A stretch of DNA of 64,000 nt from Botryllus schlosseri (taxonomy: Eukaryota), in assembly GCA_051294905.1 (NCBI GenBank), contig CM119372.1:28646001-28710000 (forward strand). Reading direction: 5' to 3'. Below the pieces are notes generated by a model. The model saw nothing but the letters and a program-made list of their open reading frames with translations. It made no database searches and was not told the origin of the DNA. Within the stretch, counting starts at the first letter, position 1. Every line of letters starts with the position of its first letter. The translations under genes were made by a program, and so were the position numbers. Below are positions 6,078 to 36,029 of the stretch, piece after piece.

Positions 6078-6730
6078 AGACAATCAGTTGTGTTCGCGTG
6101 TATCGTAACATATCCTCAACACTTGTTATGGCAACACCTCCACGCATATTTACAATATCATACTAAGGAACTATTGCTTCGGCAGCCACGCCCTATCGCT
6201 CGAAGTCGACAAATTTCGCTACAGACAGTCAGTTGTGTTCACGTATGTGTCGTAAATATATCCTCAACACATGCTATGCCAATACCTCCAAGCATATTTG
6301 CATCATACTTAGGGTTCTGGTTTAAATCAGGCTGATTTAAATCATCACGTGTCGACAATCGATCGAAGCCCGTCAACTGGTATTTTGAAAGCTCCCGGTA
6401 TGGTGTATTATTGTGTATGGATTGTTGCGGTATTAGAATTGTGGTTACGGCTCGTTGGCGGTGCGAGGATCAGGTTTATAGTATACTATAACTACTTAGC
6501 TCGGATATTATACGACGCGCTGCTATCGGTGCTTTGTCCAAGACCTAATTCACGATAATCAATCTCGCTGTCGAAAATGACATGCGGCCGCGTAGACTGC
6601 ATAGCGCCATTTTGTTTTGTGATCCATCCTGCTGTGCCGAGGATCGAAACATATCCTCAACACATGTTATGCCAACACCTCCAAGCATATTTGCAGCATC
6701 ATACTACGGATATATTGACTCGGCAGAGTG
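6078..6730 (+). repeat. ~144-bp degenerate tandem repeat within the arms
   Basis: Unit ACAATCAGTTGTGTTCGCGTGT..CGTAACATATCCTCAACAC..GTTATGCCAACACCTCC..GCATATTT at ~6080, ~6224, ~6648 (partial); also ~10237, ~10381, ~12440, ~12565 and all mirror positions. Confidence 0.8.
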
Positions 6731-7950: not shown

Positions 7951-7982
7951 CAGGGATATCTAGAAACTTCTAGATATCCCTG
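7951..7982. repeat. 32-bp perfect hairpin in a TA microsatellite
   Basis: CAGGGATATCTAGAA-AC-TTCTAGATATCCCTG flanked by TA on both sides. Confidence 0.85.
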
Positions 7983-8324
7983 TACATATATATAAATACC
8001 GCGCCGTTTCTCGTAACGGCAGCTTGAGGTACAATATCTGTATTAAGTTGAAGGCAGAATTGTGTGTTCGCTTCGTCTTATTCTCGTATGACTCTCCTTG
8101 AAACGGGCGCCAATCTTTACTCAACATTGGGACCTGCCGCCATAGTCATGGGCCTAAATATCATGTTAGCATGGGCTGTAGCTGGAATTAGGACTAAAAC
8201 AGCAGTTCGTCCCCCATATGGTGGTAATCGGAGGTTGAAGACTGAATTACGTCAATAATTACATTGTATTACTATTGATTTTTAATCCTCTATCAGCTCC
8301 CGATGGTCAGATTCACCTGTAAGA

Positions 8325-8600
8325 GTTAGTTTGTTTGAGGTAATCTTGGTGTTTGTCCACTACAACGGTCAGTTACACCAGGCCGATTTTCTTCATTTTT
8401 GATTCCGTATCTGCCGACTTGTAGCACGGCCCACTTCTAGGCTTATTGTAAGACACCGCTTACGCGGATGAGTCGGCGAGGAGGAGCCTAGATAAACCTC
8501 CAACACTTAGAAAGGATTTCTGAAGTCGACCTCGGTCGGACTCGAGCCGGCATACAATGGCGTTGCAGCCGTGGATTATACCACTGCGCTATCTCGCCAC
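8325..8600 (-). mobile_element. tRNA-derived SINE, near full length
   Basis: Reverse complement shows GTGGCGAGATAGCGCAGTGG (A box) and GGCTCGAGTCC (B box), shared body and AAAC-type tail. Confidence 0.85.
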
Positions 8601-9128
8601 AGAATTAGGCTATCTACATGTAGAGCTGGGACACGTAATTCATAACCTCTGTTATCTTGTTATAATTACTTTAGTTTATGTTGTTAATTCGTGACCTCCG
8701 ATTTGTTATATAATCAAACGATATTGTAGTGGCTCAAGCGTAGCAGACTAGAAAATAAACTGTCGTGAGACGCACAGACAAATTGTCATGTCTTTATATC
8801 TGACTGCATGTCTAGCAACTCAAGTTGTTAATTAACAGGGTCAGTGGCCACATTAACTACAAAAGGACTTGAAAACATTTTCATCATGGGGAAAAAGCAT
8901 TCATTCCGTCAATGCGGCCGTTGAACTTGACAATCAAGTCAAATGATTCAATGGTTTGATGGTCAGATAGCTTTGTAAAACGTGTTGCAACACCACCTGC
9001 ACTTAATTAAGTCTAATGATGAGCAGACTTAAATTTGAGTGACGATCCAAACGCATTTGAGTGTGAGCATACTTTTTGACGTGAGTTGAGTAACGAAATC
9101 GTTGCTGAGTAGAGAATCGCTACTCGAC

Positions 9129-15100: not shown

Positions 15101-15344
15101 CCCTCCCAAGGTCACTGCGAGCGTAAGTTAAGTCAATCTCTGTGTATGTAGTGTTAATGTCGCACCGTCGCAATAATGATCACTTATGTGTAGAAAGCAG
15201 AAATTTACGACTCGATTACTTGTACGAGCTTGTAGCTTTGGTAAGCTTGCTGAAGCGGAAAGCCACTCAAGTTGGACATTAAATTGATTGGTGTTCGTTC
15301 TCTTGTTAATAGTCGTTGGTACGTGCTTTCGTGCTTTAAAATTT
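9129..15344 (+). repeat. Inner element left inverted arm (~6.2 kb)
   Basis: Near-perfect reverse complement of 17020-23241; only two substitutions (near 14472 and 14584) and a 6-bp indel near 15308 noticed by eye. Confidence 0.95.
11272..12435. mobile_element. Non-autonomous hAT-type element inside inner left arm
   Basis: TIR CAGTGTTGCCAA / TTGGCAACACTG, 8-bp TSD AATCAGTT (11264-11271, 12436-12443), subterminal TTTAGCGA repeats. Confidence 0.9.
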
Positions 15345-17019
15345 TCAACGAATTTTAAAGATAAATAAAGAAACAGCTGATTCACACTTTTGCAAGCAAT
15401 ACTTCCGGGTATCCCGCTGTGCGGTAATGAAAAGAGGAGATTTAGGTCATAGCGAAATAGAATAAACTTCAAAAAATGGGGTTGATAAATTTTGTAAAGT
15501 ACCATAAGACATACTCAACATCAACTAATGAATTAGATATGATGTCTTGATGTCATGTGACTATAAAATCGGTTACACATTGTAACACATCGGTATCAGA
15601 CAATAACTTACACAAGCTTAAATGTGTGTTAATTTGCTTTGTAATGTGAGTTAGTGGGCATGGGGATGATTATTTCATCAATTGAATCGATTGCGATTAC
15701 GATTACTGCTGAATCATCCGACTATAATTACGGTTACAGAAAAATCCCACAAGTAGTCGAAACGTAATCACCAAGGTGCTAATTTGTTATCTCTCCTCCG
15801 TCATATGTCACCGGGTATAGGCATTGATACAATGCAGTATTGAATGCGATCCTAATAAGAATTGATACTATGCAGTGTTGACCGTGATACGTGAGGACCC
15901 CTGCTGTATGCTAATATGTCTTTTTACAAAAGTTATCACTCGTAACCCCCCACAGTGTGCGAGTTATCAACAAATCGCAGACACACTACTTCGCATAGGG
16001 GAGAATAATAACCCTCCACTCTGCTTAGTTTCAAATGGCAAAGCAATTATTGACGTTTCTTGTGTGTTAAACACATTTGGAACGCTGCTCCTTGGCCAGT
16101 AGTACGAACAGCGGACATCTATTTGAAGTTTTACACTCATCAAATAATAGATGACAAATTTCCACATCAAAGCAATAAAATCATCGGGTACCAAAATAAA
16201 TCATAACCGAGCCTGGTGGTAACGACAGCTCGCGGACTTGTATGAATTATCCAACTAATTGGTTGACGGTCAGCCATCTGCGGTTTTATGTAGTTATAGT
16301 TGCGGAGTTAAAAAAGTCAGTTGCTCGAGTTCTAGTTGCGCATTCTAGAACTGATTTCGCTGTGAAACTCGAACTGTAGAATAAAACATGTGTCGCGGTT
16401 TGACGTAAATCATGATACCGATGTTCTGTTATGTGATGTGCTTGCGGCCGTTGTTAGCTCACAGTCAGCGATACTAACAGTGGCTTAGGAAGGGTTTCAA
16501 CCACTTCAAATTCAAAGACCTATCCTTTCAAAATACCGATTCTATGTCTAATACTTCTTAGCTCATTTCCAAATCATCATTAATTCGTATTATCGGAAAT
16601 CATAGTCAGTTGTACAGCCTAGTTTATATTGCTACTTCATTTATGTACCCTCTTCATTACTACACACTAGGTGGCGGAAACGAGTAAAAATATTTATTTA
16701 AACGTATAGCACGCAGTGGGGGTACTTGTCGATCGCGTTGAACACTGTATTGTCGGGTACCACAGCCCAATGTCTACCTACCCTGTCATGTGACGTCGAA
16801 ATAATAACGAAATGGCACGTTAGTACTGCGTCTTCACAGATCATCGTGCTACGTATGAGTAAAAGCTACGTTTACGATATAGAAGGTGTGGTAAAAGATC
16901 GGTTTCGGCCCGGGGTAGGATGTGTTACACTGTTACACGCGTATTTTGTTGAACACATCAAGGTCTAAATAAGTTGTTCCTGCCTATTTATGACCATCCT
17001 TCGATGATAACAATAACAT

Positions 17020-20000
17020 AAATTTTAAAGCACGAAAGCACGTACCAACGACTATCAACGCTAACAAGAGAACGAACACCAATCAATTTAATGTCCAACT
17101 TGAGTGGCTTTCCGCTTCAGCAAGCTTACCAAAGCTACAAGCTCGTACAAGTAATCGAGTCGTAAATTTCTGCTTTCTACACATAAGTGATCATTATTGC
17201 GACGGTGCGACATTAACACTACATACACAGAGATTGACTTAACTTACGCTCGCAGTGACCTTGGGAGGGTACCTCAATACCTTCTTTCATGTTACGCGGA
17301 GAGAATAACAAAATAGCACGTCAGCGCCTGCATTTCCCGTATGTCGTCGGCTTACCTCTGGATAAAAAGGACGTTTATCGTATAGAAGGTGTGGTAAAGG
17401 ATCGGTTACGGCCCAGGAATAGGATGTGTTACACGTGTATTTGGTTGAACCCATCAAGGCCTAAATCAGTGGCTCCCAACCTTTTACGAAAACACTCTAT
17501 AATAACCAACATTTTAGACCATGAAAACACGTACCAATGAATATCGACGCTAACAAGAGTACAACAGCAATCAAAGCCCAACATGACAGTGACTTTTGAA
17601 CTATAGAACGTTTGTCAAGGCCACGAGATCGTACAACCCAGGGGTCAATTTCTGCTTTCTACACATAAGCGAGTGATCAATATAGCAATTGTGTGACATT
17701 AGCACTCCAAAACAGTTGCAATTTTACGGTGCGAATTACTCTTTAACAACTACTTCTACTTGAGTATTTCAAAGCGATACATTTTTTACTCCCATTTCAA
17801 GGAGATTTAGCATGTGCTGTGAATCGCTACAGCTATCTCGATAACCTCGCTTTGGCTAGAATCCGTAGTTTCGTATACCCAGCAGCGCTTTGTACGTTGC
17901 GTTTACGCACTACGCAGAGAGTGATTGTAGTGGCGACTAGCTTCAGTCGCTTAACGGACGATGTCGATTTCACACTCATCCCAAGGTACTGATTGTGATA
18001 ATGATCTACCACCCTCCCCGCTATTGTCGCTGCAACATGGAAACATTTGTCTGTACGAAACGAAGGTGGGTATACCCCGAGAGGGAGGAACGAGTGTGCT
18101 CGATTTTTCGTGTAATGGTAGCTTGAGTCGCTTTCGGTATTCCTCGATACATGTTTGAAAAGCACAGCCTCCATACCCACGTAATAGTCTGTGCTAAGTC
18201 ATGGGAATGCAATGTGAAATTATGTGCAAACTTCAGATCATGGACATGGCCATTGGTGTGTACATGCCAACATGGACGGGCTAGTGAGCTCGTTTTTTTT
18301 CATGTAATGAAAGCTTGTGGTCGCTTTCGCTATTCATCAATACATGTTTGAGAGCACAGGTCCCATAACCGTAATAGCCTATGCTTGTCATAGGGAATGT
18401 AATGTGAAATTATGTGCAAACTTCGATGTTCAAGTCCGAGACTAAAAGCTGGTAAAATATAGGGTTACCATAAGCCCCGAAAGGAGGACACTTTCCACGA
18501 GCTGCAAAAAGTTACTATAGCGGACGAATGATTTGTATGTTTATACATCAAATTTCATGGTGTTGACTAAAAAAGCTCATTTTGTCCCCTGACTTGACTC
18601 CCGAAATACCCATCTCTCGTAAACTAGGTCATCATTTAGTGCCATTCGTAGTCTTTTTAGATATTTTAAGATGAAAAAAGGAAGACAATTTGACAAAAAG
18701 GAGGATATTTGGACAAATGAGGGACATTTCTTGAACGGAATATACGAGTTATTTCAAACAGTAAATAGTGACTTCGATCGTGTCACACTCGACTGATCAC
18801 AGCTGATTCGTGTGCATCACACTACATCGAGATTACAAGCATTCGTACGATAAGTGATGAGAGCCCGTCCGTGTGATCATAGCTTCCGTAGTAAAACATA
18901 TCAATTTTGTCGAATACCCCACCGTCAGACAGCTGTAACACTAACCAATTCCTTACCCTTTTAGAACTGGTGTAAAGGTCATAGTAGCCGATCACCATGT
19001 TACAATACTAACAACAACATCCCCACCAAATGAATGCTACGTAATAATATTGTGTGGACGTGATCGATTAGCTCTCATAGTAATACGAACGAGATCTATA
19101 TAGTTATTATCGTTGTTTGATTGATAGATTTCATTCAATCATAAACTACTTATATTCTTCTTGTGGTGCTAAACCTGATTATACAGATGAATCAAACAGT
19201 ATTCCGCCAATTGGGAGTAGTTGCCCGTCGTCGTGATTGACCTCCTAGTTCGCGGTGGTAACAAGGAATGTATAACACAAAGTGTAAATTGTATAACAGC
19301 GACAACTAACTGTTGTCAATCGCCCACAACATACAGCTAACCAGTAATCTATAGAGCTTTCAAGAATAAACTAGGAATATCAGCGGTTAGCCCTAACTTG
19401 TCGTTCCATGACTGATTAATCCGATTTCGTCACGACGGGTCTCGGTAGTAGTTGCCCGTACGATATGGTAAATCAATCTCAAAACTCAATTCAACCTAAT
19501 CCAGAAAAATTTCACAAATACGTTTTTTCTAAATCCTAATCAATGCTCATCTCCGGCGTATACGTACTGGTTTTGTCAAAACAACAGGTTGATGGAGCGT
19601 GGCTGACATTGATTGTGACACTCGATCACAGCTTCTTCTGGTGGAATTTTTCGAAACGGTAAATCCAAGGCTAGGACGAGGGGCTCAAACAGCATTTCTC
19701 TCACGGTAACACTCCGCCGAGTCAATACGTCCATAGTATGATGCTGCAAATATGACATAACATTTGTTGAGGATATTTTACGGCACGCGTGAGCACAACT
19801 GATTGTCAGCAGCGAAATTAGTCGAATTCGAACGACAGTGCGTGGCTGCCGAAGCAATATATCCTTAGTATGATATTGGTGTTGGCATAACAAGTGTTGA
19901 GGATACGTTACGGTACACGCGAACACAACTGATTCAGTGTTGCCAACTCCGGATGGAAGAAAATCGCTAAAACTGGTGTCAAAAATCGCTAGATGTTGCT

Positions 20001-23000
20001 AAATATTGAGAAAAAAGCGCTACAAAATAGCGCTAGATCTACATTAATTGCTAAACGTGTTAAATTGAACCATAATATCAATACACTCTTCTCAGCTGTA
20101 TTTTACTCGCCTGGGGGCCAAAGTCACTTATCATATTTCTAGTTCATAATACGTAATATTCATCTCTAAGCGGAACAAAACGTGCAGTGCGTTTCGGTAG
20201 AGCGGATCGCTTTGCGCAATGATCGCTATACGTGACCACTGACCAGGTTTGCAGGCATAACCGCTCACTCTATAAGCGTGCCTTGCTCCATGCGTCCGTG
20301 AATAGTGATGCGATGTACCGTGGAAATGCGCTTGACTTCTCGAAACTGAGTTGGAGTACTTGAACACGACATGCGACTTGACACACTTGTACGCAACATG
20401 CGACTTGACCCGATACAACACGACTTGAACCGGGTTTGCCAGCCACTAAAAGTAGAGGACCAACCCGGAGTAAGAAATTTAATGAATCTGGTCCTAAACG
20501 CCAGTGTCACACTGATTCCGACAATACGAATTAAATTCTTGTAAAGACAATGCAACGACTTCAAAGTAGCCCCAAGAGTCTGAAAATCGACATTGATCAG
20601 AACAATCGCTGGACGAAATTGGTCATTGTTATGTCCATTGTGTTGCGGCGGTGCCATTATTGAAGCAATGCTGGTTTTCAGACTCCGAGGGCTGTTTCGG
20701 GGTGCATGGTTCCATTGTCCTGACGAGATTTCATTTTGTATCTTCGAAATCACTGCGACACTAGCTTTCGATCAAGGCCAATCATATTAAATTGCAGCGC
20801 TCAGGTCGCCAGATGTAGCACTGTCAATTATGCTACTTTTAGATTACACAGCAAGAAGAGACACTGTTTGCCCATGCGTAACCGCCAGGAGTTGCGTATC
20901 TATCCGTACGTTAGTAATCCATCATTAATTTCATTACATATCATTGGAGTCCGCACTCTGGTGGCAGATGAGTCGCCATAGTCGTCGGCCAGAACCGATC
21001 TTTATTAGTTATTTTCGGTAAAAAGCGCTAAATAATCGCTAAATACCTTTTCAAAAATCGCTAGATCTAGCGCGAAAATCGCTAAATTGGCAACACTGAA
21101 CTGATTGTCTATAGCGAAATCAGTCGCTCTCGAACGGCAAGTGCGTGGTGAGCTCGTGATCGATATGTGTATGTTACAGACGGGCAAAGCATTAGTTCGC
21201 CAACAGATCGATTCAAGTGGTACAATATACATCAGGGGTGGGCAAAGTTTTGAGCTCGCGGGCCGCATTCAACATTTGAATCCATTCGCGGGCCGCACTA
21301 TATAGAATTGGGATTCTAAGCCAAACGCGATACAAACAGAAGTCCGTCAATGAGTCGATACAAAGTCTCGCTGTACGCAAATTAATGTACAACGACACTC
21401 CCCTTACAGCAGAACTATTTTGTCTGGACGGGGGTGGTCACGATTCGTTTCCGGACCCGGCGCAGATTTCATCAGTTTTGGTTAAACCCGGACTGGATGC
21501 GGCCAAGTGTCTTTGAGAGTTGGATTTATGTTACATTTTACCAGCCTAATACATGGAAATACCAGGACTTTACGGGCCAGTCGGATTTTTTGGACTTTGA
21601 TTTTGCAATCCTATAGTCGCAGTGGATTCCGATTTCGAAATCTCCCACTCTACTTTACGCCTCACATCAGGCTATAGATCGTATCAGGTATGATCTGTCA
21701 CAATTCATTCCCATTATTGCACCACCGAGCGCGTTTCAGCCAAATAAGGTCTGTCCACCCCGAAGAAGCGAGCTACCCCGATTCGTCACTGGACAATTGA
21801 ATCTGACATCGTACTCGCAGTTACCGAGCGGGAAAGCGAGGCTCGAAGGTGTGGCGCAGCAATTCTCTGACGGTAATACTTCGCCGGTTCAATATATCCG
21901 TAGTATGATGCTGCAAATATGCTCGGCGGTGTTGGCATAACATGTGTTGATGAGGATATGTTACGACACACACGAGCACAACTGATTGTCTACAGCGAAA
22001 TTAGTCGAATTCGAACGACAGTGCGTGGCTGCCGAAGCAATAGTTCCTTAGCATGATATTGTAAATATGCTTGGAGGTGTTGGCATAACAAGTGTTGAGG
22101 ATATATTACGGTACACGCGAACACAACTGATTGCCTATAGCGAAATGAGTCGCCCTCGAACGACAAGTGCGTGGTGAGCTCGTGATCGATCGTACATACC
22201 GGTAAAGTATTAGTTCGACAACTGATCGATTGAAGTTGTACATCATGTACAGCATACAAAAATAATATACCGCGGGAAATTACACATCATTTACAGACAC
22301 CGGCATGATTACGCTTGACCAGACGTGAAGCAGTAAAAGAACCCATCACATTGTTTGGTTGGGACTGTCTGTTCTAATACGCTAGAAAGCGGTAAAGGTG
22401 TGGAACAGCAGTTTTTGCTTGCACCAATTACTACAATATCGGAAATTAACACGTTGATGCGAGTCAAATTGAGAATGAGCTATTTCTTTAATTACTTATT
22501 ATATTCTAAATGGTACTTTATTCAAGTTAATCTATGTCGGGGGCGCCTAATACCTATTTCTAATACACGACATTCTGGTTCTCGATATGACTCAAAATGA
22601 CACACATATTTATATCCAGAACAGATCAATTCTCCTTACTATTTAAGTCGACAACAAAGCAAGAGCAAGTACGACAGTATGGAACAGACTACATGCGTCA
22701 CTATGCACAGCCGAACGTATAGACACCTAAAACACGCACCAGGATCTCACCGACCAGGAGAAAACTTTATTGACGTCACGACCGGCAATTATTCCTATGC
22801 CCCCACGAAATCGAGTCAATCGCGAAACGACAAGTCAACCAGGGTGGTTTGATAGGCAATTATTCCCAAAGCCCCGTCACGAAATTGGACCACAAAACGA
22901 TAGGCCAGGGCGATTTGTCGGGAGGCAACTATTACCAAGCCCAGGTCTCGTGTCCAGAGGTCAAGCGAGGTAAATCTGGAGGCGAGTGGAAAAGTACAAG

Positions 23001-23241
23001 TAGAAGTACTCAAGTCTCATGTCTAACCAAAGTTCCAAAGGTCAATCGAGATTCTTTGTTCGTTTTCTCTCTAGCGTCAATCCCCCTTTTTTAATTGCCG
23101 CACAGTCAGAAGGGAATTCCCCTTGAGTATTGCTGCAAAACTGAGAATGAGGTAATTCTTTAATTAATTATTATATTGATAATCTTTGTTTGTTTATTAT
23201 AAATCGCGAATGGGCGTCGATCGCCCAAACTATATACTACT
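17020..23241 (-). repeat. Inner element right inverted arm (~6.2 kb)
   Basis: Mirror of 9129-15344 (e.g. 14830..15081- vs 17289..17540+ give identical translations). Confidence 0.95.
19935..21098. mobile_element. Mirror copy of the 11272-12435 hAT-type element in inner right arm
   Basis: Same element at the same site with TSD AACTGATT; ORF translations identical to the left copy. Confidence 0.9.
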
Positions 23242-23934
23242 CTCGACAGCAAAGGAATTGGTCTCCACCCTTAATTATTAACTCCAGATTCCAAGCCAAG
23301 CAAGTGTAATTTTTGAAAATCAATTTTTTTTGTTTGTTCTAAATTGATTTTATAATGTTTTTGTTGGGTTTTCCAACGTCAATGGGAGCCGCAAGTAGGC
23401 TAGCTCGTAGCTGCTTGTGGCTCTCAGAGCCGCGGTTGGGAATCACTGATCTAGAGAGGATTTTCAAACTAATTAGATCTCTCAAAAATACTCTATAACT
23501 TATGTTGGTTTACGAAATACTTTTTGAGCCCCCTTCGAGCTCGCTCCCCACCATATTGGGAAATTTGGGGTGCGGTAATTAGGCCCCTGGCAAGAATGCA
23601 AATCATTGAGTGCGATAAATTGACCCCTAAAAAATAGGCAATGGGTACATTATGACGTAACAAGCAAATGACGCATCTCTTTTACAGGGAGTTTGTTATC
23701 TCATTAGGCCTCTTCAGCGCAATCCATATATTGTCTTCCAACATAGCTTCGAAGATGCAAAATAAATGTAATCGTGAGTAATCGTGATTACTTTTCCAAT
23801 GTAATCGTAATCGTAATCGACTACTTCCTGATGTTGCTGTAATCGTAATCGTAATCGTAATCGCGTCATTCATAAGTAATCGTAATCGCAATCGATTACA
23901 ATCATAAACTAATCACCCCATGTCTGGTATCGAC

Positions 23935-26900
23935 CCTTTGGCGGAATTCTGTTTGGTTCGTCTGTACAGGTGTTATTAGTGCGACCAGATTTGGCACCTC
24001 GAGGAGGATATTGGTAAAAACCGTATCACACAACGAGGACAATAACTTTACCGGTCAACAATGTACGTAAATCAGCTGTGTTCAATCGAGCGTGACACAA
24101 TCGATGTCAGCCATCAATCTGCGGCTTGATAAAACCCGCGTTTTCGGGTTGACAGCAACACAATGCGATCCATTCGATATCACTATCGACCCTCCTATTT
24201 TAATATAGGGTTACCATGAGGCCTCCTTTAGGGGAGCATATGTCCTCCATTTCCCAGATATGTCACCCAATTCACCCAAATGTACTCTCTTTCTGTCAGT
24301 TTGTCCTCCTTGTTAGCTCAACATCTCCAAAAAAGCACCACGAGTAACGCAAAATGTGGGCCTAGATTACAAAAGTCGGGTACGTGGCCAAATCGGAAAA
24401 ATGACGCTATGATGGTATTGTGCAGGCTATTACGTGGATACGGGGGCCTGTGTAAACATGTGAATAGTAAAAGCGCTCCAAACTACCGTGAAAAAAGATC
24501 GAGCGCATTAGACCATGTCGGGGCCACCTTAGTACAGTCAAATGATCCCATGTCGTATCGAGAATAGCCGGGGCGGTGGTGGTACATCATTCTCACAAGA
24601 TGTACTTTGGAATGCGTGTGAAATCGTCTTCGTCCGCTACTCGACTAAAGCAGAATATAGCTTTGAAGTACTCAAGTAGCTTTAAAGGAAATGTCGTGAA
24701 ATCGCTTTCTATCCTAATGATAAAGAGTAGGCCCCCCATAAATCTATCGAGCCAAAATGTAGTTTCAAAGCAATCCAGTAATTTGTAAATCTTACGGGTT
24801 GAACGGTGTGTTCATTGACTAGAGAGAAGGAGACACGACGGTGCCTGTATAACAAGGCTGTTCTCAAACCGACATTGTCTTCGTTATTATCGGCGAGATA
24901 TGGCTTTGCAGTGACATTGCGGTCGGTAAAATACATTGATTAAATACGATTTATCCCTCGTATATGGGGATCAATGGGCGAATAATGTATCGATTCAGCA
25001 ATTCGGCATGCCAAGTACTTAATTTTCTCCGGCCCGCCGACCGAAGGAGTTGCCCGCCCCCCTTGTATAACACATATGTAGATGATACAATAGCGACAGC
25101 TAGCGGTTGTCAATCATCCATAAAAATACTAACCAGTAATACAGCCCTCAAGGAAAACAACAATCCGGGGAGATACGTCAAGTGTATTTCAGATACATCG
25201 TCTGTAGACCTCCAATTGCGGAGAACACTGGAGCAGCTGAAGCACTGTGTTCTGTCTAGGTCACCGAGATAAAGCTTGTTTTGCCAACTCGCCGACCGTC
25301 CGTGGTATGGGATAGCTGGGTCATTTCTCAAAGGTTCAGTACTCTCCGTATTTTGAGGTTATTGCACAATCTATCTCTAATATGCTGTAATATAGACAGG
25401 TCCAGACTTGTCTATTCACTTCCGTAGACTGACCTTTATAACACATTTTACACAATTAAATACACATGTTCAGTTTATTTGAAGTAATAACGGGCAAGCA
25501 CATTAACTAATCGTCCAGAACAAGGTGTAGAGCTTCTTTCAGATCTTGGCATACTTTCTTGATATCAGAATCTTTTTTTTGATTTGCGATGTAAAAGCAA
25601 TACCAGCTTCGCATACATGAGCATATGATTGCGTATAAACCGATATTGAAGTCTTCTGAGAGCATCTTCATTATTCTCCAGTCTACACAATATTATTTTC
25701 CTCTTAGTACGTTATGTCTCTCAATCCAACAGAACAGTTGAATTGCTATTCGAAGGTATCTGATACAGACAACTGTAAACTAATTCTTTAAGTTTGTTCA
25801 TCGTAGCGTAACGACCATTTTTACGAATCCATAACTGTATCATTTGATATCGTTGCTCAGTTAAGGTATAGCAATCCATGTATTGGCATTCGGCAATTTC
25901 ATTGTCAGATAGCTCAAGTTTTTCACGTGCAAACCTATACCAGTTCATCGGGTCAATCCGATCCATTATGACGTATATATCACTAGCAGTAATCTTGGAC
26001 ATATTCGATCTATAGTGTACAGCGAATAATCATGTAATAAATATTACACGTTATATATTGCCTTGCACTCGGTTCAACTACAATAACAAATAAGGCGATC
26101 AACTTACGCAATAATGACGTAATCATATCTCAGCGTTACTGAAACCAAGCAAAGCCGCTCTCGTAATAACTAGAGTAATCAACTATACGCAATCATAATG
26201 ACGTAATCATTACTGCACATGCTTGAACTGCAATACGCAATCATAATGAAGAATATATACGTATATATCAATTTCTGCAACTTTTTAATTTTGCTCGCAC
26301 TGTACACGATTTCATGTAGATAAATGTTTTGATTATTAGGCACCCTTCCTTCACAAAAAATACGCATCATTTATGAGAGTAGGAATCTAAGCGTTGGCCA
26401 TTACCACGCCAAGAGGTAAGAAGACATATGAAGTTTGGGCCATCATGGGCCTCATAGAAGAGTGCCAAAAAGATCGTCAGCGAGAAAACATGGGTCGAAA
26501 AGGATTGCCCTTATGTTGACCGTAAACTTCGATATAAATGTATTTGTATGGGTGTCTAAAGTGCTGGCACCGAATAATTATGTCGTGGTAATCTGGACCC
26601 CACAGGGCAACTGACATCCCACCCCGAATTATTATTTAACAGTGAAGAAATACCAATTTTGAATCGTGCGCTTCTTTTAGTTTAGTAGTCTGTGTATAGG
26701 CGAGTTCAATATCTTTTGATTACATACCGCACATGGGAAGTCGGACTGAGAGGATACAAAATTTATAGCAATATACACGCAATTATCAATATTATTGACC
26801 TAATCAATCATTAATTATACAGTCATTTCACCAGGTCCACGTGGTCGCATCTGAATGGAGACCGGATAGGTCAAAAGTGCTACATTCGGTCAAAGTGGCG

Positions 26901-27592
26901 AACATACCGCCTGGTTATCAAGTGTTTTTATGTATGATCGACCCCCACTGTCTAGCGAGACGAGCAGGATTTTGGTGTCTGATTATTAATGTCGTAAGAG
27001 TGTGGTAAATCCATTTACAAACTACTTTACACATTTCAAAATCCCAACACCCGAAAAGTAAGTAGCTAAAACGGTTGAAGCGGAGGTAGTCTGAAACACA
27101 ACGACTCATATAGCACAGATGGACAAATCCTAATCGAGTACATCGGATAGAGTTGCATCCTTGAAATCGTTATTTCCTCAACAAATCGATACAAGAATGG
27201 ATCTGCATGGGAATAAACATGAATATGTTCTGATGACACTCGTTATGGAAAGCTAAATTCGCCTGCCCCACATCCCCAACAGAACATATTGACAATTAAT
27301 ATCAGCCATATACTACAGAAATACCCATTTACTCGAATGGTACCATGTCTGAAATACTGTAGTGTAGGCGAATCAGCGTCTACTGATCCTGACAGTCACC
27401 GTTTAAACAGGTTTTTGCCGGGTCAACTGTGATCGGACACGGTTCATCCGCTACTTGCAGACTTATACGCGCGGGGGGTTGAAAAAAAAATGGCTCGGAT
27501 GCTATGTCAGCTCAGGGCGACAATTCGAAGTTTTAAACGATACGGTTGGTACGTAAAGCCTCGTTATTCCCGCGTATTGTGAGGGTAAAACC
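23935..27592 (+). repeat. Outer element left inverted arm, part 2
   Basis: Reverse complement of 29718-33374 (ORF 24964..25272+ mirrors 32038..32346-; 26918..27109- mirrors 30201..30392+). Match ends at GAGGGTAAAACC / GGTTTTACCCTC. Confidence 0.95.
25721..26002 (-). CDS. Death-domain-only protein (93 aa)
   Basis: ATG-initiated ORF with the death-domain pattern W..FAR..L.LSDNEI...L.EQ.YQM...W..KNG..AT...L...; TATA box ~50 bp upstream. Confidence 0.8.
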   Translation of the reverse strand: MSKITASDIYVIMDRIDPMNWYRFAREKLELSDNEIAECQYMDCYTLTEQRYQMIQLWIRKNGRYATMNKLKELVYSCLYQIPSNSNSTVLLD

Positions 27593-28234
27593 GATGCTAA
27601 AATAAGTCGTCGGAAGGGTATACCGAAAGCCTCTTTGCACTGCGGGTGAACTTATCGCATAGCATTTCACAGCTCTGCGGCGTAATTTAACTGTCTAGCG
27701 CTGTGGACGGTCCATTTTGTCTGCTAATTGGGGGCCATAAACGACCGAGTGAAACAAATAGTTTGGGGTATATGCGGATATGATTAGGAAACAACACGCT
27801 GAATGACTTGGGAATCTCAACTCGACAAAGGATCGTCGCGACGGGGGACCTGCAAAAACGTCCCAGACACCCTGAATCCCGCTAATGTAGGCGCTGACAG
27901 AGCATAATTTTCCCTGCTACGGGTGTAATCTAGATAAAGCATGATTTTTTCCTATATGTCTGTAATCTATATAAAGCATAGTGCTCCCTAGATACCAGGC
28001 GTGGGGGATCACGAATCACCAAGTGTTTTTATACATTGAGAAATGATCGAGCTATTTTTATACCCGAGGTAGTCATTCAGAGACATGCAGGCTTATTCGT
28101 ATAGACTCTCTATAGTGTAGCATCTATCTGATTCGGGGATAAGTAAATGCTTTGTCCACGCTCAAACTGAGGATGCTTTGAATTTGTATCTTACTCATGT
28201 TATTATTCACCCTCCAGGAAATATTTATAGTACG

Positions 28235-28741
28235 ATGGAGTCTAATAAATGCCGTATTTGTGCGCGGGAATTCACAAGAAAATGCAACCTCAAAAGTCAT
28301 TTACTATGGCACACTGGTGTTAAAGAACATGAATGCTTGATATGCGGACGATGGTTTCTTGCCAAACAGAACCTACATGCCCATTTGGCTGTACACTCGG
28401 GGGTGAAACCGTACGATTGTGAAGTATGTGGTCGTTTTTTTGCCCGAAAATACACCATGGAAGTTCATTTGGCCACACATACTGGCGTAGAAAGATTCGA
28501 GTGTGGGGTGTGTGGTAAGCTTCTGTCGGGGAAGAATGGGCTGAAAAAACACCTAGAAACACACTTTGGAATTGGAAAATACTCGTGTCAGGTGTGTGGG
28601 AGACTGTTTCCTCACCAATGCGGGTTAGAAACTCACCTCCAGGCTCCCGTGGGACTGAGAAAATATCCATGCGGTGTTTGCGGTAAAGCTTTTGGTTCGC
28701 AAGCAAATCTTCACAGACACGAGACTACTCCCTTTGTGTGA
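28235..28741 (+). CDS. Tandem C2H2 (Kruppel-type) zinc-finger protein, 168 aa from first ATG
   Basis: Six CxxC units with TGVKEHE/SGVKPYD/TGVERFE linkers; fingers 1-4 have both His, fingers 5-6 lack the last His. A pyrimidine-rich CCCTCCAG at ~28210-28217 suggests an upstream intron, so the true start could lie in another exon. Confidence 0.9.
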   Translation: MESNKCRICAREFTRKCNLKSHLLWHTGVKEHECLICGRWFLAKQNLHAHLAVHSGVKPYDCEVCGRFFARKYTMEVHLATHTGVERFECGVCGKLLSGKNGLKKHLETHFGIGKYSCQVCGRLFPHQCGLETHLQAPVGLRKYPCGVCGKAFGSQANLHRHETTPFV

Positions 28742-28769
28742 GCCGATCGTATTTCAATATGAGTGTACC

Positions 28770-28812
28770 AATAAATATTTTTTTCGCGTCTGTATAATTC
28801 TGTGTTGTTTGT
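28770..28812 (+). terminator. Polyadenylation signal of the zinc-finger gene
   Basis: AATAAA at 28770-28775, ~30 bp after the stop, followed by T- and GT-rich downstream sequence (TGTGTTGTTTGT). Confidence 0.6.
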
Positions 28813-31060
28813 CCGAGGCTTCTATGTTGGTGTTTTAATCATTTAGTGGGGGCAGAGATAAAAGAGTCGATATTACAATAGACACGACTCGTCCTAGTCG
28901 AGTATTAGAAACCACCATGAAAGCAGGTCAACTTTATGTGACAGTTTTGATAACACCAATACTACAAAATACCATTTATCGTCTGACGGTGAAAGATGGG
29001 GATTTGCGAATAGGGGCTGGTTGCAATACCACACGAGTAAATACACAGAGAGAGTCTTTATTTTAAACAAACCAAAATACGTAACAAACGGCAGTGATGG
29101 TGGTACAGAAAATATACTTTGCACAGTATTCGGTACTAGATGGGAATGATCGACAAGACCGTGAAGGTCATCTAGTCTGATCACACAGTGTAAAGAGGCT
29201 TTCGGTATACCCTTCCGAAACGTATAGTTACGGGGCATGGACGGGCGCCCGGGAGACATACCTTATTAGTAATTTTACCGTACGACTTATTTTAGCATCG
29301 GGTGATTTTAATACCCTTTCGAAGATGTCGTGTTTTATTTGACGAAGTCAGAGGTTTGTTTCACACGGTGTGATTACGAGTGATAAATTGTAAACATAAT
29401 AGCACACAGCAGCTGACGGGTCGCGGTGCGGGACAATAAAGACGGTTACCGTGCGAGACGTACAAGCCACCATAACTACACAGAGGTCGTCAGCAATGCC
29501 GCTACTTTTTTCCGGGTACTCGATTCTGTCTACTCGCACTGCACCAAGTTATCAATGTGGCTAGCCTTCTTTAGGAAGCCACTTACTTTTACTAGTTTAT
29601 AAAAGTTTAGCGACCCCCTCCGTATCATGCGACGATAGCTGGAGCTGTTAGGCTTGACTAGAGTTGACCACGATTCGGGCACGCATTTTCATCGGCTCGA
29701 TGTGGAACTGTCTTAAAGGTTTTACCCTCACAATACGCGGGAATAACGAGGCTTTACGTACCAACCGTATCGTTTAAAACTTCGAATTGTCGCCCTGAGC
29801 TGACATAGCATCCGAGCCATTTTTTTTTCAACCCCCCGCGCGTATAAGTCTGCAAGTAGCGGATGAACCGTGTCCGATCACAGTTGACCCGGCAAAAACC
29901 TGTTTAAACGGTGACTGTCAGGATCAGTAGACGCTGATTCGCCTACACTACAGTATTTCAGACATGGTACCATTCGAGTAAATGGGTATTTCTGTAGTAT
30001 ATGGCTGATATTAATTGTCAATATGTTCTGTTGGGGATGTGGGGCAGGCGAATTTAGCTTTCCATAACGAGTGTCATCAGAACATATTCATGTTTATTCC
30101 CATGCAGATCCATTCTTGTATCGATTTGTTGAGGAAATAACGATTTCAAGGATGCAACTCTATCCGATGTACTCGATTAGGATTTGTCCATCTGTGCTAT
30201 ATGAGTCGTTGTGTTTCAGACTACCTCCGCTTCAACCGTTTTAGCTACTTACTTTTCGGGTGTTGGGATTTTGAAATGTGTAAAGTAGTTTGTAAATGGA
30301 TTTACCACACTCTTACGACATTAATAATCAGACACCAAAATCCTGCTCGTCTCGCTAGACAGTGGGGGTCGATCATACATAAAAACACTTGATAACCAGG
30401 CGGTATGTTCGCCACTTTGACCGAATGTAGCACTTTTGACCTATCCGGTCTCCATTCAGATGCGACCACGTGGACCTGGTGAAATGACTGTATAATTAAT
30501 GATTGATTAGGTCAATAATATTGATAATTGCGTGTATATTGCTATAAATTTTGTATCCTCTCAGTCCGACTTCCCATGTGCGGTATGTAATCAAAAGATA
30601 TTGAACTCGCCTATACACAGACTACTAAACTAAAAGAAGCGCACGATTCAAAATTGGTATTTCTTCACTGTTAAATAATAATTCGGGGTGGGATGTCAGT
30701 TGCCCTGTGGGGTCCAGATTACCACGACATAATTATTCGGTGCCAGCACTTTAGACACCCATACAAATACATTTATATCGAAGTTTACGGTCAACATAAG
30801 GGCAATCCTTTTCGACCCATGTTTTCTCGCTGACGATCTTTTTGGCACTCTTCTATGAGGCCCATGATGGCCCAAACTTCATATGTCTTCTTACCTCTTG
30901 GCGTGGTAATGGCCAACGCTTAGATTCCTACTCTCATAAATGATGCGTATTTTTTGTGAAGGAAGGGTGCCTAATAATCAAAACATTTATCTACATGAAA
31001 TCGTGTACAGTGCGAGCAAAATTAAAAAGTTGCAGAAATTGATATATACGTATATATTCT

Positions 31061-31260
31061 TCATTATGATTGCGTATTGCAGTTCAAGCATGTGCAGTAA
31101 TGATTACGTCATTATGATTGCGTATAGTTGATTACTCTAGTTATTACGAGAGCGGCTTTGCTTGGTTTCAGTAACGCTGAGATATGATTACGTCATTATT
31201 GCGTAAGTTGATCGCCTTATTTGTTATTGTAGTTGAACCGAGTGCAAGGCAATATATAAC
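31061..31260 (+). promoter_or_regulatory. Putative promoter of the death-domain gene (mirror at ~26050-26249 on minus strand)
   Basis: TGATTACGTCATTAT twice (31101-31115, 31185-31199), ATTGCGTA three times, TATATAA at 31253-31259, ATG at 31308. Confidence 0.5.
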
Positions 31261-31307
31261 GTGTAATATTTATTACATGATTATTCGCTGTACACTATAG
31301 ATCGAAT

Positions 31308-31589
31308 ATGTCCAAGATTACTGCTAGTGATATATACGTCATAATGGATCGGATTGACCCGATGAACTAGTATAGGTTTGCACGTGAAAAACTTGAGCTA
31401 TCTGACAATGAAATTGCCGAATGCCAATACATGGATTGCTATACCTTAACTGAGCAACGATATCAAATGATACAGTTATGGATTCGTAAAAATGGTCGTT
31501 ACGCTACGATGAACAAACTTAAAGAATTAGTTTACAGTTGTCTGTATCAGATACCTTCGAATAGCAATTCAACTGTTCTGTTGGATTGA
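31308..31589 (+). pseudogene. Mirror copy of death-domain gene with nonsense mutation W21*
   Basis: ATG at 31308; codon 21 (31368-31370) is TAG where the left-arm copy has TGG; otherwise matches. Confidence 0.85.
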
Positions 31590-34500
31590 GAGACATAACG
31601 TACTAAGAGGAAAATAATATTGTGTAGACTGGAGAATAATGAAGATGCTCTCAGAAGACTTCAATATCGGTTTATACGCAATCATATGCTCATGTATGCG
31701 AAGCTGGTATTGCTTTTACATCGCAAATCAAAAAAAAGATTCTGATATCAAGAAAGTATGCCAAGATCTGAAAGAAGCTCTACACCTTGTTCTGGACGAT
31801 TAGTTAATGTGCTTGCCCGTTATTACTTCAAATAAACTGAACATGTGTATTTAATTGTGTAAAATGTGTTATAAAGGTCAGTCTACGGAAGTGAATAGAC
31901 AAGTCTGGACCTGTCTATATTACAGCATATTAGAGATAGATTGTGCAATAACCTCAAAATACGGAGAGTACTGAACCTTTGAGAAATGACCCAGCTATCC
32001 CATACCACGGACGGTCGGCGAGTTGGCAAAACAAGCTTTATCTCGGTGACCTAGACAGAACACAGTGCTTCAGCTGCTCCAGTGTTCTCCGCAATTGGTG
32101 GTCTACAGACGATGTATCTGAAATACACTTGACGTATCTCCCCGGATTGTTGTTTTCCTTGAGGGCTGTATTACTGGTTAGTATTTTTATGGATGATTGA
32201 CAACCGCTAGCTGTCGCTATTGTATCATCTACATATGTGTTATACAAGGGGGGCGGGCAACTCCTTCGGTCGGCGGGCCGGAGAAAATTAAGTACTTGGC
32301 ATGCCGAATTGCTGAATCGATACATTATTCGCCCATTGATCCCCATATACGAGGGATAAATCGTATTTAATCAATGTATTTTACCGACCGCAATGTCACT
32401 GCAAAGCCATATCTCGCCGATAATAACGAAGACAATGTCGGTTTGAGAACAGCCTTGTTATACAGGCACCGTCGTGTCTCCTTCTCTCTAGTCAATGAAC
32501 ACACCGTTCAACCCGTAAGATTTACAAATTACTGGATTGCTTTGAAACTACATTTTGGCTCGATAGATTTATGGGGGGCCTACTCTTTATCATTAGGATA
32601 GAAAGCGATTTCACGACATTTCTTTTAAAGCTACTTGAGTACTTCAAAGCTATATTCTGCTTTAGTCGAGTAGCGGACGAAGACGATTTCACACGCATTC
32701 CAAAGTACATCTTGTGAGAATGATGTACCACCACCGCCCCGGCTATTCTCGATACGACATGGGATCATTTGACTGTACTAAGGTGGCCCCGACATGGTCT
32801 AATGCGCTCGATCTTTTTTCACGGTAGTTTGGAGCGCTTTTACTATTCACATGTTTACACAGGCCCCGTATCCACGTAATAGCCTGCACAATACCATCAT
32901 AGCGTCATTTTTCCGATTTGGCCACGTACCCGACTTTTGTAATCTAGGCCCACATTTTGCGTTACTCGTGGTGCTTTTTTGGAGATGTTGAGCTAACAAG
33001 GAGGACAAACTGACAGAAAGAGAGTACATTTGGGTGAATTGGGTGACATATCTGGGAAATGGAGGACATATGCTCCCCTAAAGGAGGCCTCATGGTAACC
33101 CTATATTAAAATAGGAGGGTCGATAGTGATATCGAATGGATCGCATTGTGTTGCTGTCAACCCGAAAACGCGGGTTTTATCAAGCCGCAGATTGATGGCT
33201 GACATCGATTGTGTCACGCTCGATTGAACACAGCTGATTTACGTACATTGTTGACCGGTAAAGTTATTGTCCTCGTTGTGTGATACGGTTTTTACCAATA
33301 TCCTCCTCGAGGTGCCAAATCTGGTCGCACTAATAACACCTGTACAGACGAACCAAACAGAATTCCGCCAAAGGGTCGATACCAAGTCTCCTTGTACGTA
33401 AATTATTATACAACGACACCTATATTACAGCAGAACAATCTTGTCTGGACGGAGGAGGTCACGAAACATCTTCGGACCCGGGGCAGATTTCATCAGTTTT
33501 CAGCGAAGCCAGTCTGGATGCGGCCAAATGGCCCTGAGAGTCGGATTTATGCTATATTTTACCCTCACAACATATGGAAATAACAGGACTTTACGAGCCA
33601 GCCGGATTTTTTGGACTTTGATTTAGCAACCCTATAGTCGCAGTGGATTCCGATTTCGAAATCTCCCCCTCTACTTTACACCTCACCTCAGGCTATAGAT
33701 CGTATCAGGTATGATCTGTCACAATTCATTCCCATTATTGCACCACCGAGCGCGTTTCAGCCAAATAAGGTCAGTCCACCCCGATGAAGCGAGCTACCCC
33801 GATTCGTTTCGCGGACAATTGAAATAACATCGTACTCGCAGTTACCGAGCGGAAAATACAAGGCCCGAAGGCGTGACACAGCAATTCTCTGACGGTAACA
33901 CTCTGCCGAGTCAATATATCCGTAGTATGATGCTGCAAATATGCTTGGAGGTGTTGGCATAACATGTGTTGAGGATATGTTTCGATCCTCGGCACAGCAG
34001 GATGGATCACAAAACAAAATGGCGCTATGCAGTCTACGCGGCCGCATGTCATTTTCGACAGCGAGATTGATTATCGTGAATTAGGTCTTGGACAAAGCAC
34101 CGATAGCAGCGCGTCGTATAATATCCGAGCTAAGTAGTTATAGTATACTATAAACCTGATCCTCGCACCGCCAACGAGCCGTAACCACAATTCTAATACC
34201 GCAACAATCCATACACAATAATACACCATACCGGGAGCTTTCAAAATACCAGTTGACGGGCTTCGATCGATTGTCGACACGTGATGATTTAAATCAGCCT
34301 GATTTAAACCAGAACCCTAAGTATGATGCAAATATGCTTGGAGGTATTGGCATAGCATGTGTTGAGGATATATTTACGACACATACGTGAACACAACTGA
34401 CTGTCTGTAGCGAAATTTGTCGACTTCGAGCGATAGGGCGTGGCTGCCGAAGCAATAGTTCCTTAGTATGATATTGTAAATATGCGTGGAGGTGTTGCCA

Positions 34501-36029
34501 TAACAAGTGTTGAGGATATGTTACGATACACGCGAACACAACTGATTGTCTGCAGCGAAATGAGTCGCCCTCGAACGGCAAGTGCGTGGTGAGCTCGTGA
34601 TCGATATGTGTATGTTACAGACGGGCAAAGCATTAGTTCGCCAACAGTTCGATTCAAGTTGTATATCATGTACAGCATACAAAATTAATATCCCGTGGTA
34701 AATTGAATATCATTTGCAGACACCGGGATGATTACGCTTGACCAACCGTGAAGCAGTAAAAAGAACCCATCATAAATACATTGTTTTACTCGGGACTGTC
34801 TGTCCTTATGAATACGCTAGAACGAGGTATAGGTATTGAACAGCCACATTTGTTGCTTGCACCGATTACTAGGTACGTAATACCAGGGGTTAACATGTTG
34901 ATGCGAGCAAAATTGAGAATCAGCTATTTGCTCAATTACTTATTGTATTTATAATGCTAATTTATTTAAGTTAATCTATGTCGGGTCGCCTAATACACAT
35001 TTCTACTACGACATTCATTCTCATTCTCGATATGACTCGAAATGGTATACATATTTATAATCGTAACAGATCGTTTCTCGTTACTGTCTGGGTCGATAAC
35101 AAAGTAAAAAAGGGTTCAAGTACAACAGTACACAAGACACAGACCACAAGCGTCACTTTACATAGCCGAACGTATGGACACCTAAAACACGCACCAGGAT
35201 CTCATGGATCAGAAGAAACTATACTGACGTCACGACCGGTAATTATGACCCACCGTACACGAAATTGAATCAACCGCGGAACGACAAGTCAACCAGCTTG
35301 ACGCTCTATTGTTCCCGAGCCACGAAATTGGACCACGGAATGACAGGTCAGGGCAGGCAACTATGGTCAAGCCCCGTCGTACACGACCGAAGTCAGCACC
35401 GGCAATTATTCCCATGCCCCACCGTACATGAAATCGAGTCAACCACGGGACGACAAGTCAGCCAGGGGGTTTGACGGGGAATTATTCCCAAGACACGTCA
35501 CGAAATTGGACCACAAAACGATAGGTCAGGACGATATGTCGTCAGGCAACTATTACCAAGCCCCGTCGCGTATGACCGGAGTCAGCTGTAATTTCATGTC
35601 CTTGGCCAGAGGTCGAGCGAGGTTGTTACGAGTCCAGTATGACACAGGCTGTGGACGTCGCTTTGCCCAGCCGAGCGTATCGTCGGCGTGCATACCATTG
35701 AAATTAAAAGCCGATCCATTGTTATTCGAGGGAAAATATAATAAATACTCAATACACAAGTCTCGTGTCCAGAGATCAAGCGAGGTAAGGAGTGGAAAAG
35801 TACAAGTAGAATGACTCCAGTACAAAGGTCAATCCAGATTCTTTGTTCGTTTTCTCTCAGTCCCCCCTATTGCCGCACAGTCAGAAGGGAATTCCCCTCG
35901 AGTATTGCTGCAAAACTGAGAATGAGCTAATTCTTACACTGTTTATTATCTTGATAATGTTTGTTTGTTCTTTATAAATCGCGAATGGGCACCTTCCGCA
36001 CATTTCTCTAACTACTTCCATGCTACAAG

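Follow-up and report, generated by a model that had tools for sequence, protein, structure and literature searches.

We describe here a death-domain gene carried by a mobile element in the genome of Botryllus schlosseri, within a 64,000-nucleotide stretch of contig CM119372.1 (assembly GCA_051294905.1, forward-strand positions 28,646,001 to 28,710,000), hereafter the window; positions are those of the window unless another locus is named. The gene is a short open reading frame (ORF) encoding a single death domain (DD), and it lies in one arm of a palindromic, non-autonomous derivative of a Maverick/Polinton element with terminal inverted repeats (TIRs) and a target-site duplication (TSD). The gene, its cassette, and its carrier comprise the following features.

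25721..26002, minus strand: DD-only ORF, 93 aa plus stop, ATG to TGA, no intron needed
26003..26260, minus strand: promoter region of the DD cassette, with TATATAA at 26051-26057 and ATTACGTCAT-type motifs at 26114-26123 and 26198-26207
25474..25720, minus strand: 3' untranslated region of the DD gene, ending at AATAAA (25474-25479)
25438..26235, minus strand: DD cassette of ~800 nt (promoter, ORF, 3' region), shared at 97-99% with other palindromic elements whose flanks differ
31308..31589, plus strand: mirror copy of the DD ORF, with one G>A change that turns W21 into a TAG stop (pseudogene)
4613..36016, no strand: carrier element, a palindromic non-autonomous Maverick/Polinton derivative with AGTAGT termini
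4613-7255 and 23925-27592: left arm of the carrier; 27593-29717: loop; 29718-36016: right arm
4607-4612 and 36017-36022: 6-bp TSD of the carrier, TCCATG

The original prediction, made from the sequence alone, had described an intronless 93-aa ORF that is essentially one death domain, and the profile search and structure prediction proposed with it both return a death domain. Pfam Death (PF00531) matches residues 8-75 (E 5.8e-11, 42.8 bits against a cut-off of 22.6), and the top matches of a PDB sequence search were the death domains of TNFR1 (E 2.8e-6), RIPK1, ankyrins, and FADD. An AlphaFold2 model, built from an alignment of 39 relatives, reached a mean pLDDT of 85.7 and a pTM of 0.75, and is a compact helical bundle of the death fold, with five helices by DSSP (residues 6-15, 18-28, 33-42, 47-65, and 68-79) against the six canonical ones; the long helix 47-65 may stand for two of these. 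In a Foldseek comparison of the model with the PDB, all top rows were death domains with TM-scores of 0.6-0.7 (TNFR1 DD 0.68, RAIDD DD 0.71), the lowest E-value being 1.9e-3, with zero rows at E <= 0.001. The death domain occupies residues 1-80, followed by a disordered tail (residues 83-93). Beyond about residue 76 the tails of DD copies differ between subfamilies by indels, which fits the disordered tail of the model; the position of the stop also differs, and the core is retained. The protein is thus made of a recruitment domain alone, as decoy-type proteins are, and profile, fold, and more than 100 genomic copies rule out a chance ORF.

The location claimed for the gene was likewise correct: the inverted repeat around it pairs 24443-27592 with 29718-32867 at a nominal 100% identity, and the arms 23925-27592 and 29718-33384 differ by blastn at 3 mismatches and 1 gap over 3668 nt. 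The right arm also pairs with 4613-7255 (11 mismatches over 2643 nt), and some internal repeats of 115 nt are present inside the arms. The TATA-containing upstream region that had been noticed is present on the minus strand, with TATATAA ~50 nt upstream of the ATG and an A at base -3 of the latter. The claim of duplication stood in part, since a second copy exists in the right arm, yet it differs from the ORF at one base and is broken by the resulting stop; the intact copy in the window element is only the one reported.

That the gene is cargo of a mobile element was also borne out, and the carrier, left unnamed in that prediction, belongs to the Mavericks/Polintons by its TIRs starting with 5'-AG and its 6-bp TSD. 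Over 340 nt at its termini it shares 87% identity with an element on C8 (C8m, below) with polymerase, integrase, and capsid homologues. Among frames of at least 120 aa at positions 1-40000, Pfam recognized neither a protein-primed DNA polymerase B (pPolB) nor an rve integrase in the carrier, and none of these frames matched a transposase, polymerase, or integrase; the only Pfam matches in this interval were the DD, half a BIR domain at 25113-25358, and, in the loop, a frame with C2H2 zinc fingers. Similarly, tblastn with the pPolB, integrase, and major capsid protein of an autonomous element on C10 found nothing in the window. Because it lacks polymerase and integrase genes, the carrier is a non-autonomous derivative and not a full Maverick.

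Copies of the gene are numerous in the genome. Searching the 495.5-Mb assembly by tblastn with the 93-aa protein (E <= 1e-3; 150 of 160 candidates scored), we detected at least 146 matches, and at least 102 of the copies are near-full-length and DD-only, distributed over 17 or more contigs. By identity, 87 matches fall at 83% or above, 2 at 68-70%, and 13 at 55-57%. In the first class, 78 of the 87 are stop-free, and 60 form 30 inverted pairs spaced 5-23 kb apart, the remaining 27 being single. Seven DD-bearing palindromes were inspected, including the window element and its duplicate 111 kb upstream (C2up), in a sample that takes in only some of the wider-spaced pairs; their arms measure 4.7-8 kb and are 99.5-100% identical, and one of them is almost loopless. 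AGTAGT ends and perfect 6-bp TSDs were present in all nine elements examined for them (the seven palindromes, a further palindrome nested in the window and termed element B, and the C22 Maverick described below). Moreover, every DD copy checked in context (9/9: six distinct palindromic loci, the upstream duplicate, and two autonomous Mavericks) lies inside a Maverick-ended element with TSDs, and host-type flanks were found for none of them. The centers of near-loopless palindromes (L011+L012, ~C13:23079189; L025+L026, ~C11:14122048) hold asymmetric spacers of 35-45 nt made of degenerate TTAGGG/CCCTAA-like repeats and flanked by a GC-rich inverted motif.

Two types of autonomous Maverick were found to carry the gene, and a third type, represented by one element whose ends resemble those of the window carrier, does not. 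Their main features are as follows.

C22 element (of the 55-57% DD clade): TIRs of 838 nt, with a AGTAGTATATA start shared with the palindromes, and a 6-bp TSD
L020:5338-5850, minus strand: caspase-family ORF of the C22 element, 171 aa, Peptidase_C14 E 9e-7, with GHG and QCYSG motifs
C10:4908425-4926284 (L087+L088): C10 element (66-67% polymerase class), 17.86 kb, AGTAGT ends, TSD GTCGAG, TIR of ~245 nt
C8m element, on C8: 16.4 kb, TIRs of 342 nt, 6-bp TSD with one mismatch

The C22 element encodes an integrase with rve and chromo domains, an ATPase of poxvirus A32 type, an open 1288-aa frame, and a 431-aa frame that faintly matches a double jelly roll (E 0.03); as cargo it carries a DD ORF in each TIR and a BIR ORF (E 2e-10). 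Its caspase-family ORF overlaps the inner TIR edge by ~16 nt. Capture of a whole DD-caspase gene by this element was considered and is unsupported, the caspase-like ORF having no BLASTP similarity to the host DD-caspase. The 1288-aa frame was grouped with DNA_pol_B_2 clusters in the protein Atlas (score 0.97, 227/256 features), which is a lead, and its candidate identity as pPolB rests on that lead and on the 35-67% identity among the large frames of the three element types. The C10 element has its DD ORF 294 nt inside the left TIR, reading inward, followed by a BIR ORF (E 2e-11), an open 1310-aa polymerase-like frame, and an integrase; at the opposite end lie ORFs for a ubiquitin-conjugating enzyme of E2 type (E 2e-48) and for a member of the Bcl-2 family (E 1e-19).

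The order terminus-DD-ORF195-BIR-ORF414-pPolB is identical in the C10 and C22 types, whose large frames are 67%, capsid candidates 84%, and DDs 56% identical. Given this conserved gene order, the simplest reading would be that the DD gene was already present in the common ancestor of both. A tblastn search with the 1288-aa frame (36 of 356 candidates scored), with linkage judged by comparing coordinates with the DD matches, gave at least 37 polymerase-frame matches in three identity classes (93-100%, 66-67%, and 62%), most of them open. Among the matches listed, a DD match lies within 10 kb in 10 of 12 loci of the 93-100% class (C22 type), in 11 of 12 of the 66-67% class, and in 0 of 12 of the 62% class, and in the first two classes the DD stands upstream of the pPolB on the same strand. 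Beside polymerase frames of the 66-67% class, the DDs share 88-92% identity with the window protein.

The polymerase-like frame of C8m comes in two pieces (671 + 709 aa) and is 35% identical to that of the C10 type; its integrase and capsid candidate are 44% and 33% identical to the C10-type proteins. By tblastn C8m has no DD, BIR, Bcl-2, or E2. The window carrier therefore joins C8m-type termini to a cassette of another origin: 805 nt of its arm match C10 positions 1336-2085 (promoter, ORF, 3' region) at 87% identity and in inverted orientation. Alignments of this kind demonstrate that the DD cassette moved between Maverick lineages, and the direction was probably from a C10-type lineage to a C8m-type palindrome, to judge from synteny and from the single C8m-type element. 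Compared with four other palindromes, the window cassette aligns over 617-804 nt at 97-99% identity, and it alone is common to all at high identity, its flanks being different or rearranged; the cassette faces the terminus in some elements and the interior in others. The 260 nt 5' of the ATG, with the TATA box and ATTACGT motifs, align across the window element, the palindromes C11p, C1p, and C11b, and the C10 Maverick; in C13p and C4p the DD ORF is retained behind unrelated upstream sequence.

The original prediction had also proposed to examine selection, expression, and phylogeny. Selection was studied in 68 of the 102 near-full-length loci, with one member taken of most inverted pairs; the 75-codon DD core is open in 65 of the 68, and 63 have both the ATG and an open core. 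On this core, Nei-Gojobori (NG86) ratios of replacement to silent substitution rates (dN/dS) for the window copy were 0.29 against the C10/C11b type, 0.08 against the 70% clade, and 0.35 against the C22 clade (dS 0.79, dN 0.28), that is, about 0.1-0.35 and not near the value of 1 that would have spoken against function. A parsimony count over 41 haplotypes, with multiply hit codons left out (18 changes internal, 33 terminal), gave 46 replacement (N) to 34 silent (S) changes on internal branches against a site ratio of 183:42 (binomial p 8e-7) and 29 N : 32 S on terminal branches. In the close family (30 haplotypes, dropping L076, L062, and nine haplotypes of distant clades) the count was 32 N : 24 S (p 3e-5), with 19:12 on terminal branches alone; for both tests the binomial null is without transition bias, so that the p-values are optimistic and the direction is clear. 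At the level of sequence, these counts demonstrate purifying selection on the DD gene.

For expression, raw reads from ~6% of a bulk RNA-seq run (X24) were aligned to the 3668-nt arm. The 27 reads recovered are nearly confined to the DD cassette, with depth within 25524-26138 save for traces in 2-3 other bins and zero over the rest of the arm. Four of them run past 25749 into non-arm sequence, which we take to be the reverse complement of the SMART template-switch oligo; this would imply an RNA 5' end on the minus (coding) strand. All 27 lie only partly on the arm and could derive from any copy of 95% or greater similarity, and they lend weak but specific support to transcription of DD cassettes of this family. 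Reads of runs X1 and X4 ('RNA?') extend over the entire arm and probably represent DNA. An index of sequencing runs lists none with RNA of the cassette, which weighs neither for nor against transcription.

With regard to relatives, a HMMER pass over 1.84 billion protein representatives (E <= 1e-3) returned only 18 that match the DD protein. One near-identical relative (P0001, 83 aa, 99% identity) comes from ENA contigs. Four of the nine best non-self matches (P0003, P0004, P0005, and P0010; 39-49% identity) combine a DD at the N terminus with a caspase domain behind it, and three of these four are named caspase-like in Styela clava. In Botryllus itself, a tandem cluster at C8 2.35-2.40 Mb (L019) holds at least five long intronless frames of 521-569 aa, and the two that were scanned have an N-terminal death domain and a caspase domain with SHG and Q-x-C-C-G motifs. 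The DD of the 569-aa DD-caspase shares 59% identity with the window protein and 60% with the C22 DD, and in the phylogeny this host DD groups with the Maverick DDs, in a tree of 78 columns that does not settle the branching order. Judged by sequence, the closest cellular relatives of the element DD are the N-terminal DDs of DD-caspases; a decoy is likewise expected to stand nearest to the recruitment domain of the caspase or adaptor that it mimics. Among viral contigs of IMG/VR, 114 pattern matches included 0 relatives of the DD protein; JGI metagenomes yielded seven loci with DD exons at 38-48% identity, with no Maverick genes alongside any of the seven.

The window contains further features, most of them nested in the carrier.

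25113..25358, minus strand: half of a BIR (IAP) domain (E 8.8e-7, covering 30-63 of the 70 profile positions), a fragment in an 82-aa open frame
28121..28738, plus strand: C2H2 zinc-finger open frame in the carrier loop, 206 aa stop to stop, zf-H2C2_2 E 9e-24, several fingers
7256..23924, no strand: nested insertion of 16.7 kb, confined to the left arm and bounded by an 11-nt duplication, TGGTATCGACC
9129..23241, no strand: element B, a 14.1-kb palindrome with 6.2-kb arms, a 1.75-kb loop, AGTAGT ends, and TSD CTCGAC

The BIR half-domain is encoded downstream of the DD gene, on that gene's strand, and tblastn at 1e-4 detects no similarity between it and the BIR ORFs of either the C10 or the C22 Maverick. 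A reading of the DD ORF as exon 1 of a joint DD-BIR gene was rejected: the BIR fragment amounts to half a domain within a frame of 82 aa, an AATAAA stands between the two, and in autonomous elements the adjoining BIR gene is on the opposite strand; with 27 reads, splicing is still conceivable. The nested insertion is a 2.55-kb element (7256-9128 and 23242-23924) with short inverted ends (GACATGGGG...) that contains element B; its 11-nt duplication would presumably suit a Mutator-like element. Element B itself has no DD gene and no Pfam-recognizable ORF. The upstream duplicate C2up (L023+L024, C2:28555788-28570512) is a 99.8% identical copy of the carrier with the same flanks and TSD and without the 16.7-kb insertion, so that its 6.3-kb arms are uninterrupted around a 2.1-kb loop, and both of its DD copies are intact; it would be either a segmental duplication or an uncollapsed haplotype (haplotig). 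Outside the carrier, weak matches to a Tc3-transposase-type helix-turn-helix (39606-39956, minus strand, E 0.002) suggest a Tc1/mariner remnant.

Taken together, we favor, at somewhat better than even confidence for the reading as a whole, a DD-only ORF that is a Maverick accessory gene, carried as a cassette in a palindromic derivative, and whose protein acts as a decoy. The gene is kept near one terminus of two autonomous Maverick lineages, with its own promoter and poly(A) signal, and the ~800-nt cassette has recombined into the 6.3-kb arms of a gene-poor palindromic derivative of a third lineage, itself without a DD. This derivative would move only with the integrase and polymerase of a helper, and its hairpin form is probably a copy-back (snap-back) product of protein-primed strand-displacement replication; the DD gene would be present twice because of this origin. 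The protein, resembling the N-terminal DD of host DD-caspases, would occupy the DD-DD assembly platform and block caspase activation, and would act in concert with the BIR, Bcl-2, and E2 genes that these elements also carry, so that the cell survives while the element or its helper replicates. On the whole the earlier interpretation, a possible apoptosis or innate-immunity decoy benefiting the element or its helper, is supported; decoy action against host DD-caspases fits the genomic context and the closest relatives, and we infer it by analogy.

Several points weigh against this reading. Decoy binding and activity are predicted from sequence, and a DD, when overexpressed, can equally induce death. 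In the window element the mirror copy is a pseudogene and element B, of the same palindromic kind, is without the gene; therefore the DD gene is not needed for the spread of palindromes. Since many DD copies are young, their intact frames alone are weak proof, and the optimistic p-values, the partial reads of run X24, and the 78 columns of the tree, which leave the order among Maverick DDs and the host DD unsettled, count on the same side. Furthermore, Pfam, PHROGs, and PDB sequence searches do not recognize the 1288-aa frame as a polymerase, and the absence of a DD was checked in only one autonomous element with a window-type terminus.

The alternative that survives best, which we nevertheless regard as unlikely, is that the gene is a passive hitch-hiker in the palindromes, the window copy included: standing near the parent terminus, it would have been swept into copy-back products, its frame open through youth. 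C11b is in fact a collinear palindrome in which the left end of a C10-type element (terminus and DD) is folded back, and the broken mirror copy, the lack of the gene in element B, and the many loci with identical 225-nt cores, indicating recent bursts, agree with such a history. In the window element, C11p, and C1p, however, the cassette lies 1-4.4 kb from the terminus, in opposite orientation and in a foreign backbone, which indicates that it arrived by recombination and not by position; C13p and C4p keep the ORF behind a different upstream region, and the terminal branches of the close family are still short of replacement changes (19 N : 12 S).

A gene functional for Mavericks could also act in the opposite sense, as an activator or scaffold that nucleates DD assemblies for late death and particle release, or that redirects DD signaling to an NF-kB-type pathway instead of caspases. 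The same evidence of selection, synteny, and expression applies to it, the C22 lineage has in addition the caspase-like ORF with GHG and QCYSG motifs, and isolated DDs of TRADD, RIPK1, and FADD kill or block depending on context. We consider this quite improbable, since the co-resident BIR and Bcl-2 genes belong to classically anti-death families and the nearest relatives are prodomains of caspases, as is the case for known decoys. Very improbable, in turn, is a host gene family derived from DD-caspases, repeat-surrounded or domesticated, in which elements merely amplify a host immune domain: the 59% identity to the N-terminal DD of the host DD-caspase and the position of that DD among the element DDs would suit it, but all nine copies seen in context are inside Maverick-ended elements with TSDs, none of the copies examined has host-type flanks, there are at least 102 copies over 17 or more contigs, and the position is conserved in two Maverick lineages. 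An artefact, either a chance ORF or arms folded back in assembly, is scarcely credible even with nearly identical arms and a near-identical same-flank locus 111 kb upstream that could be a haplotig, because profile, fold, and more than 100 copies exclude a chance ORF and ~30 inverted pairs occupy different sites, the seven examined each with its own 6-bp TSD.

Returning to the accessory-gene and decoy reading, it may be carried further, as a tentative proposal which, taken as a whole, we hold to be possible and less than probable. Botryllus would harbor recently active viral Mavericks with a modular death-control set (DD-only, BIR, Bcl-2, E2, and small caspase-like genes), in which the DD would be the first virus-encoded mimic of a DD-caspase prodomain; its cassette would be traded between distant lineages, copy-back satellites would supply the anti-death function in trans, and the palindromes would be germline fossils of adenovirus-like strand-displacement replication. 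Whether Mavericks/Polintons still act as host-manipulating viruses is an open question for which accessory genes are the best clue, and here a genome of the chordate lineage has many Mavericks with open polymerase frames together with a coherent set of cell-death regulators. For a DD-only protein akin to the prodomain of a host DD-caspase we found no viral counterpart described. The DD-only protein and the DD-caspase form a testable pair that bears on the activation of DD-caspases in invertebrate chordates and on the way in which an endogenous virus might block these enzymes, and palindromes with Maverick ends and 6-bp TSDs offer genomic evidence on Maverick replication and satellite formation.

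Decoys consisting only of a death-fold domain are known from viruses and cells: the viral FLIPs of herpesviruses and molluscum contagiosum virus are DED-only, poxviruses encode pyrin-only proteins, and the cellular CARD-only proteins CARD16, CARD17, and CARD18 derive from the prodomain of caspase-1. Like these, the element protein is a single death-fold domain nearest to a caspase recruitment domain, and like the viral decoys it is encoded by a virus-like element beside other regulators of cell death. Unlike them, it is a DD proper and not a DED, CARD, or PYD, its decoy action is predicted, and its carriers are Mavericks/Polintons and their defective derivatives with more than 100 germline copies. 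Host-gene captures of the Pack-MULE or Helitron type are fragmentary exon copies without expression signals of their own that drift neutrally; the DD gene departs from them in its whole domain, promoter, and poly(A) signal, in an omega of ~0.3, and in its conserved position in autonomous elements.

As to the form of the carrier, Foldback transposons such as Drosophila FB and sea-urchin TU have a comparable architecture, and FB ends are made of short tandem subrepeats, with a 9-bp target duplication in Drosophila. The carrier likewise consists almost wholly of two inverted arms, but unlike FB its ends are unique Maverick-type sequence and its TSD is 6 bp. Defective adenovirus genomes with long inverted repetitions were reportedly described by Daniell in 1976, and copy-back genomes of a protein-primed replicon would take just the carrier's form, if this was its origin; unlike those genomes, the carrier palindromes are integrated and heritable.

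Maverick/Polinton elements are said to have been described by Kapitonov and Jurka in 2006 and by Pritham and colleagues in 2007. The elements studied here share with them TIRs from 5'-AG and a 6-bp TSD, and the autonomous relatives also a candidate pPolB, an rve integrase, a packaging ATPase, and a capsid candidate, whereas the window carrier is without core genes and its 6.3-kb 'TIRs' make up most of the element. Mavericks/Polintons have also been treated by Barreat and Katzourakis (2021; PMC8097293), and homologues of Bcl2 and IAP have been observed in adintovirus/Polinton-type elements (Starrett et al., PMC8502044). Like the adintoviruses of the latter paper, the autonomous relatives in Botryllus carry BIR and Bcl-2 ORFs near their ends; its main text mentions no death domain, and beyond the accessory genes given there we found an E2, a caspase-like ORF, a DD-only gene, and a cassette moving between lineages. 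In the literature on Polintons/Mavericks we found no DD gene and, by titles and abstracts, no description of giant palindromic non-autonomous Polintons. In brief, Bcl-2 and IAP cargo was already known, and what is new here is a Maverick accessory gene that is a DD proper, behaves as a cassette, and is amplified by palindromic satellites.

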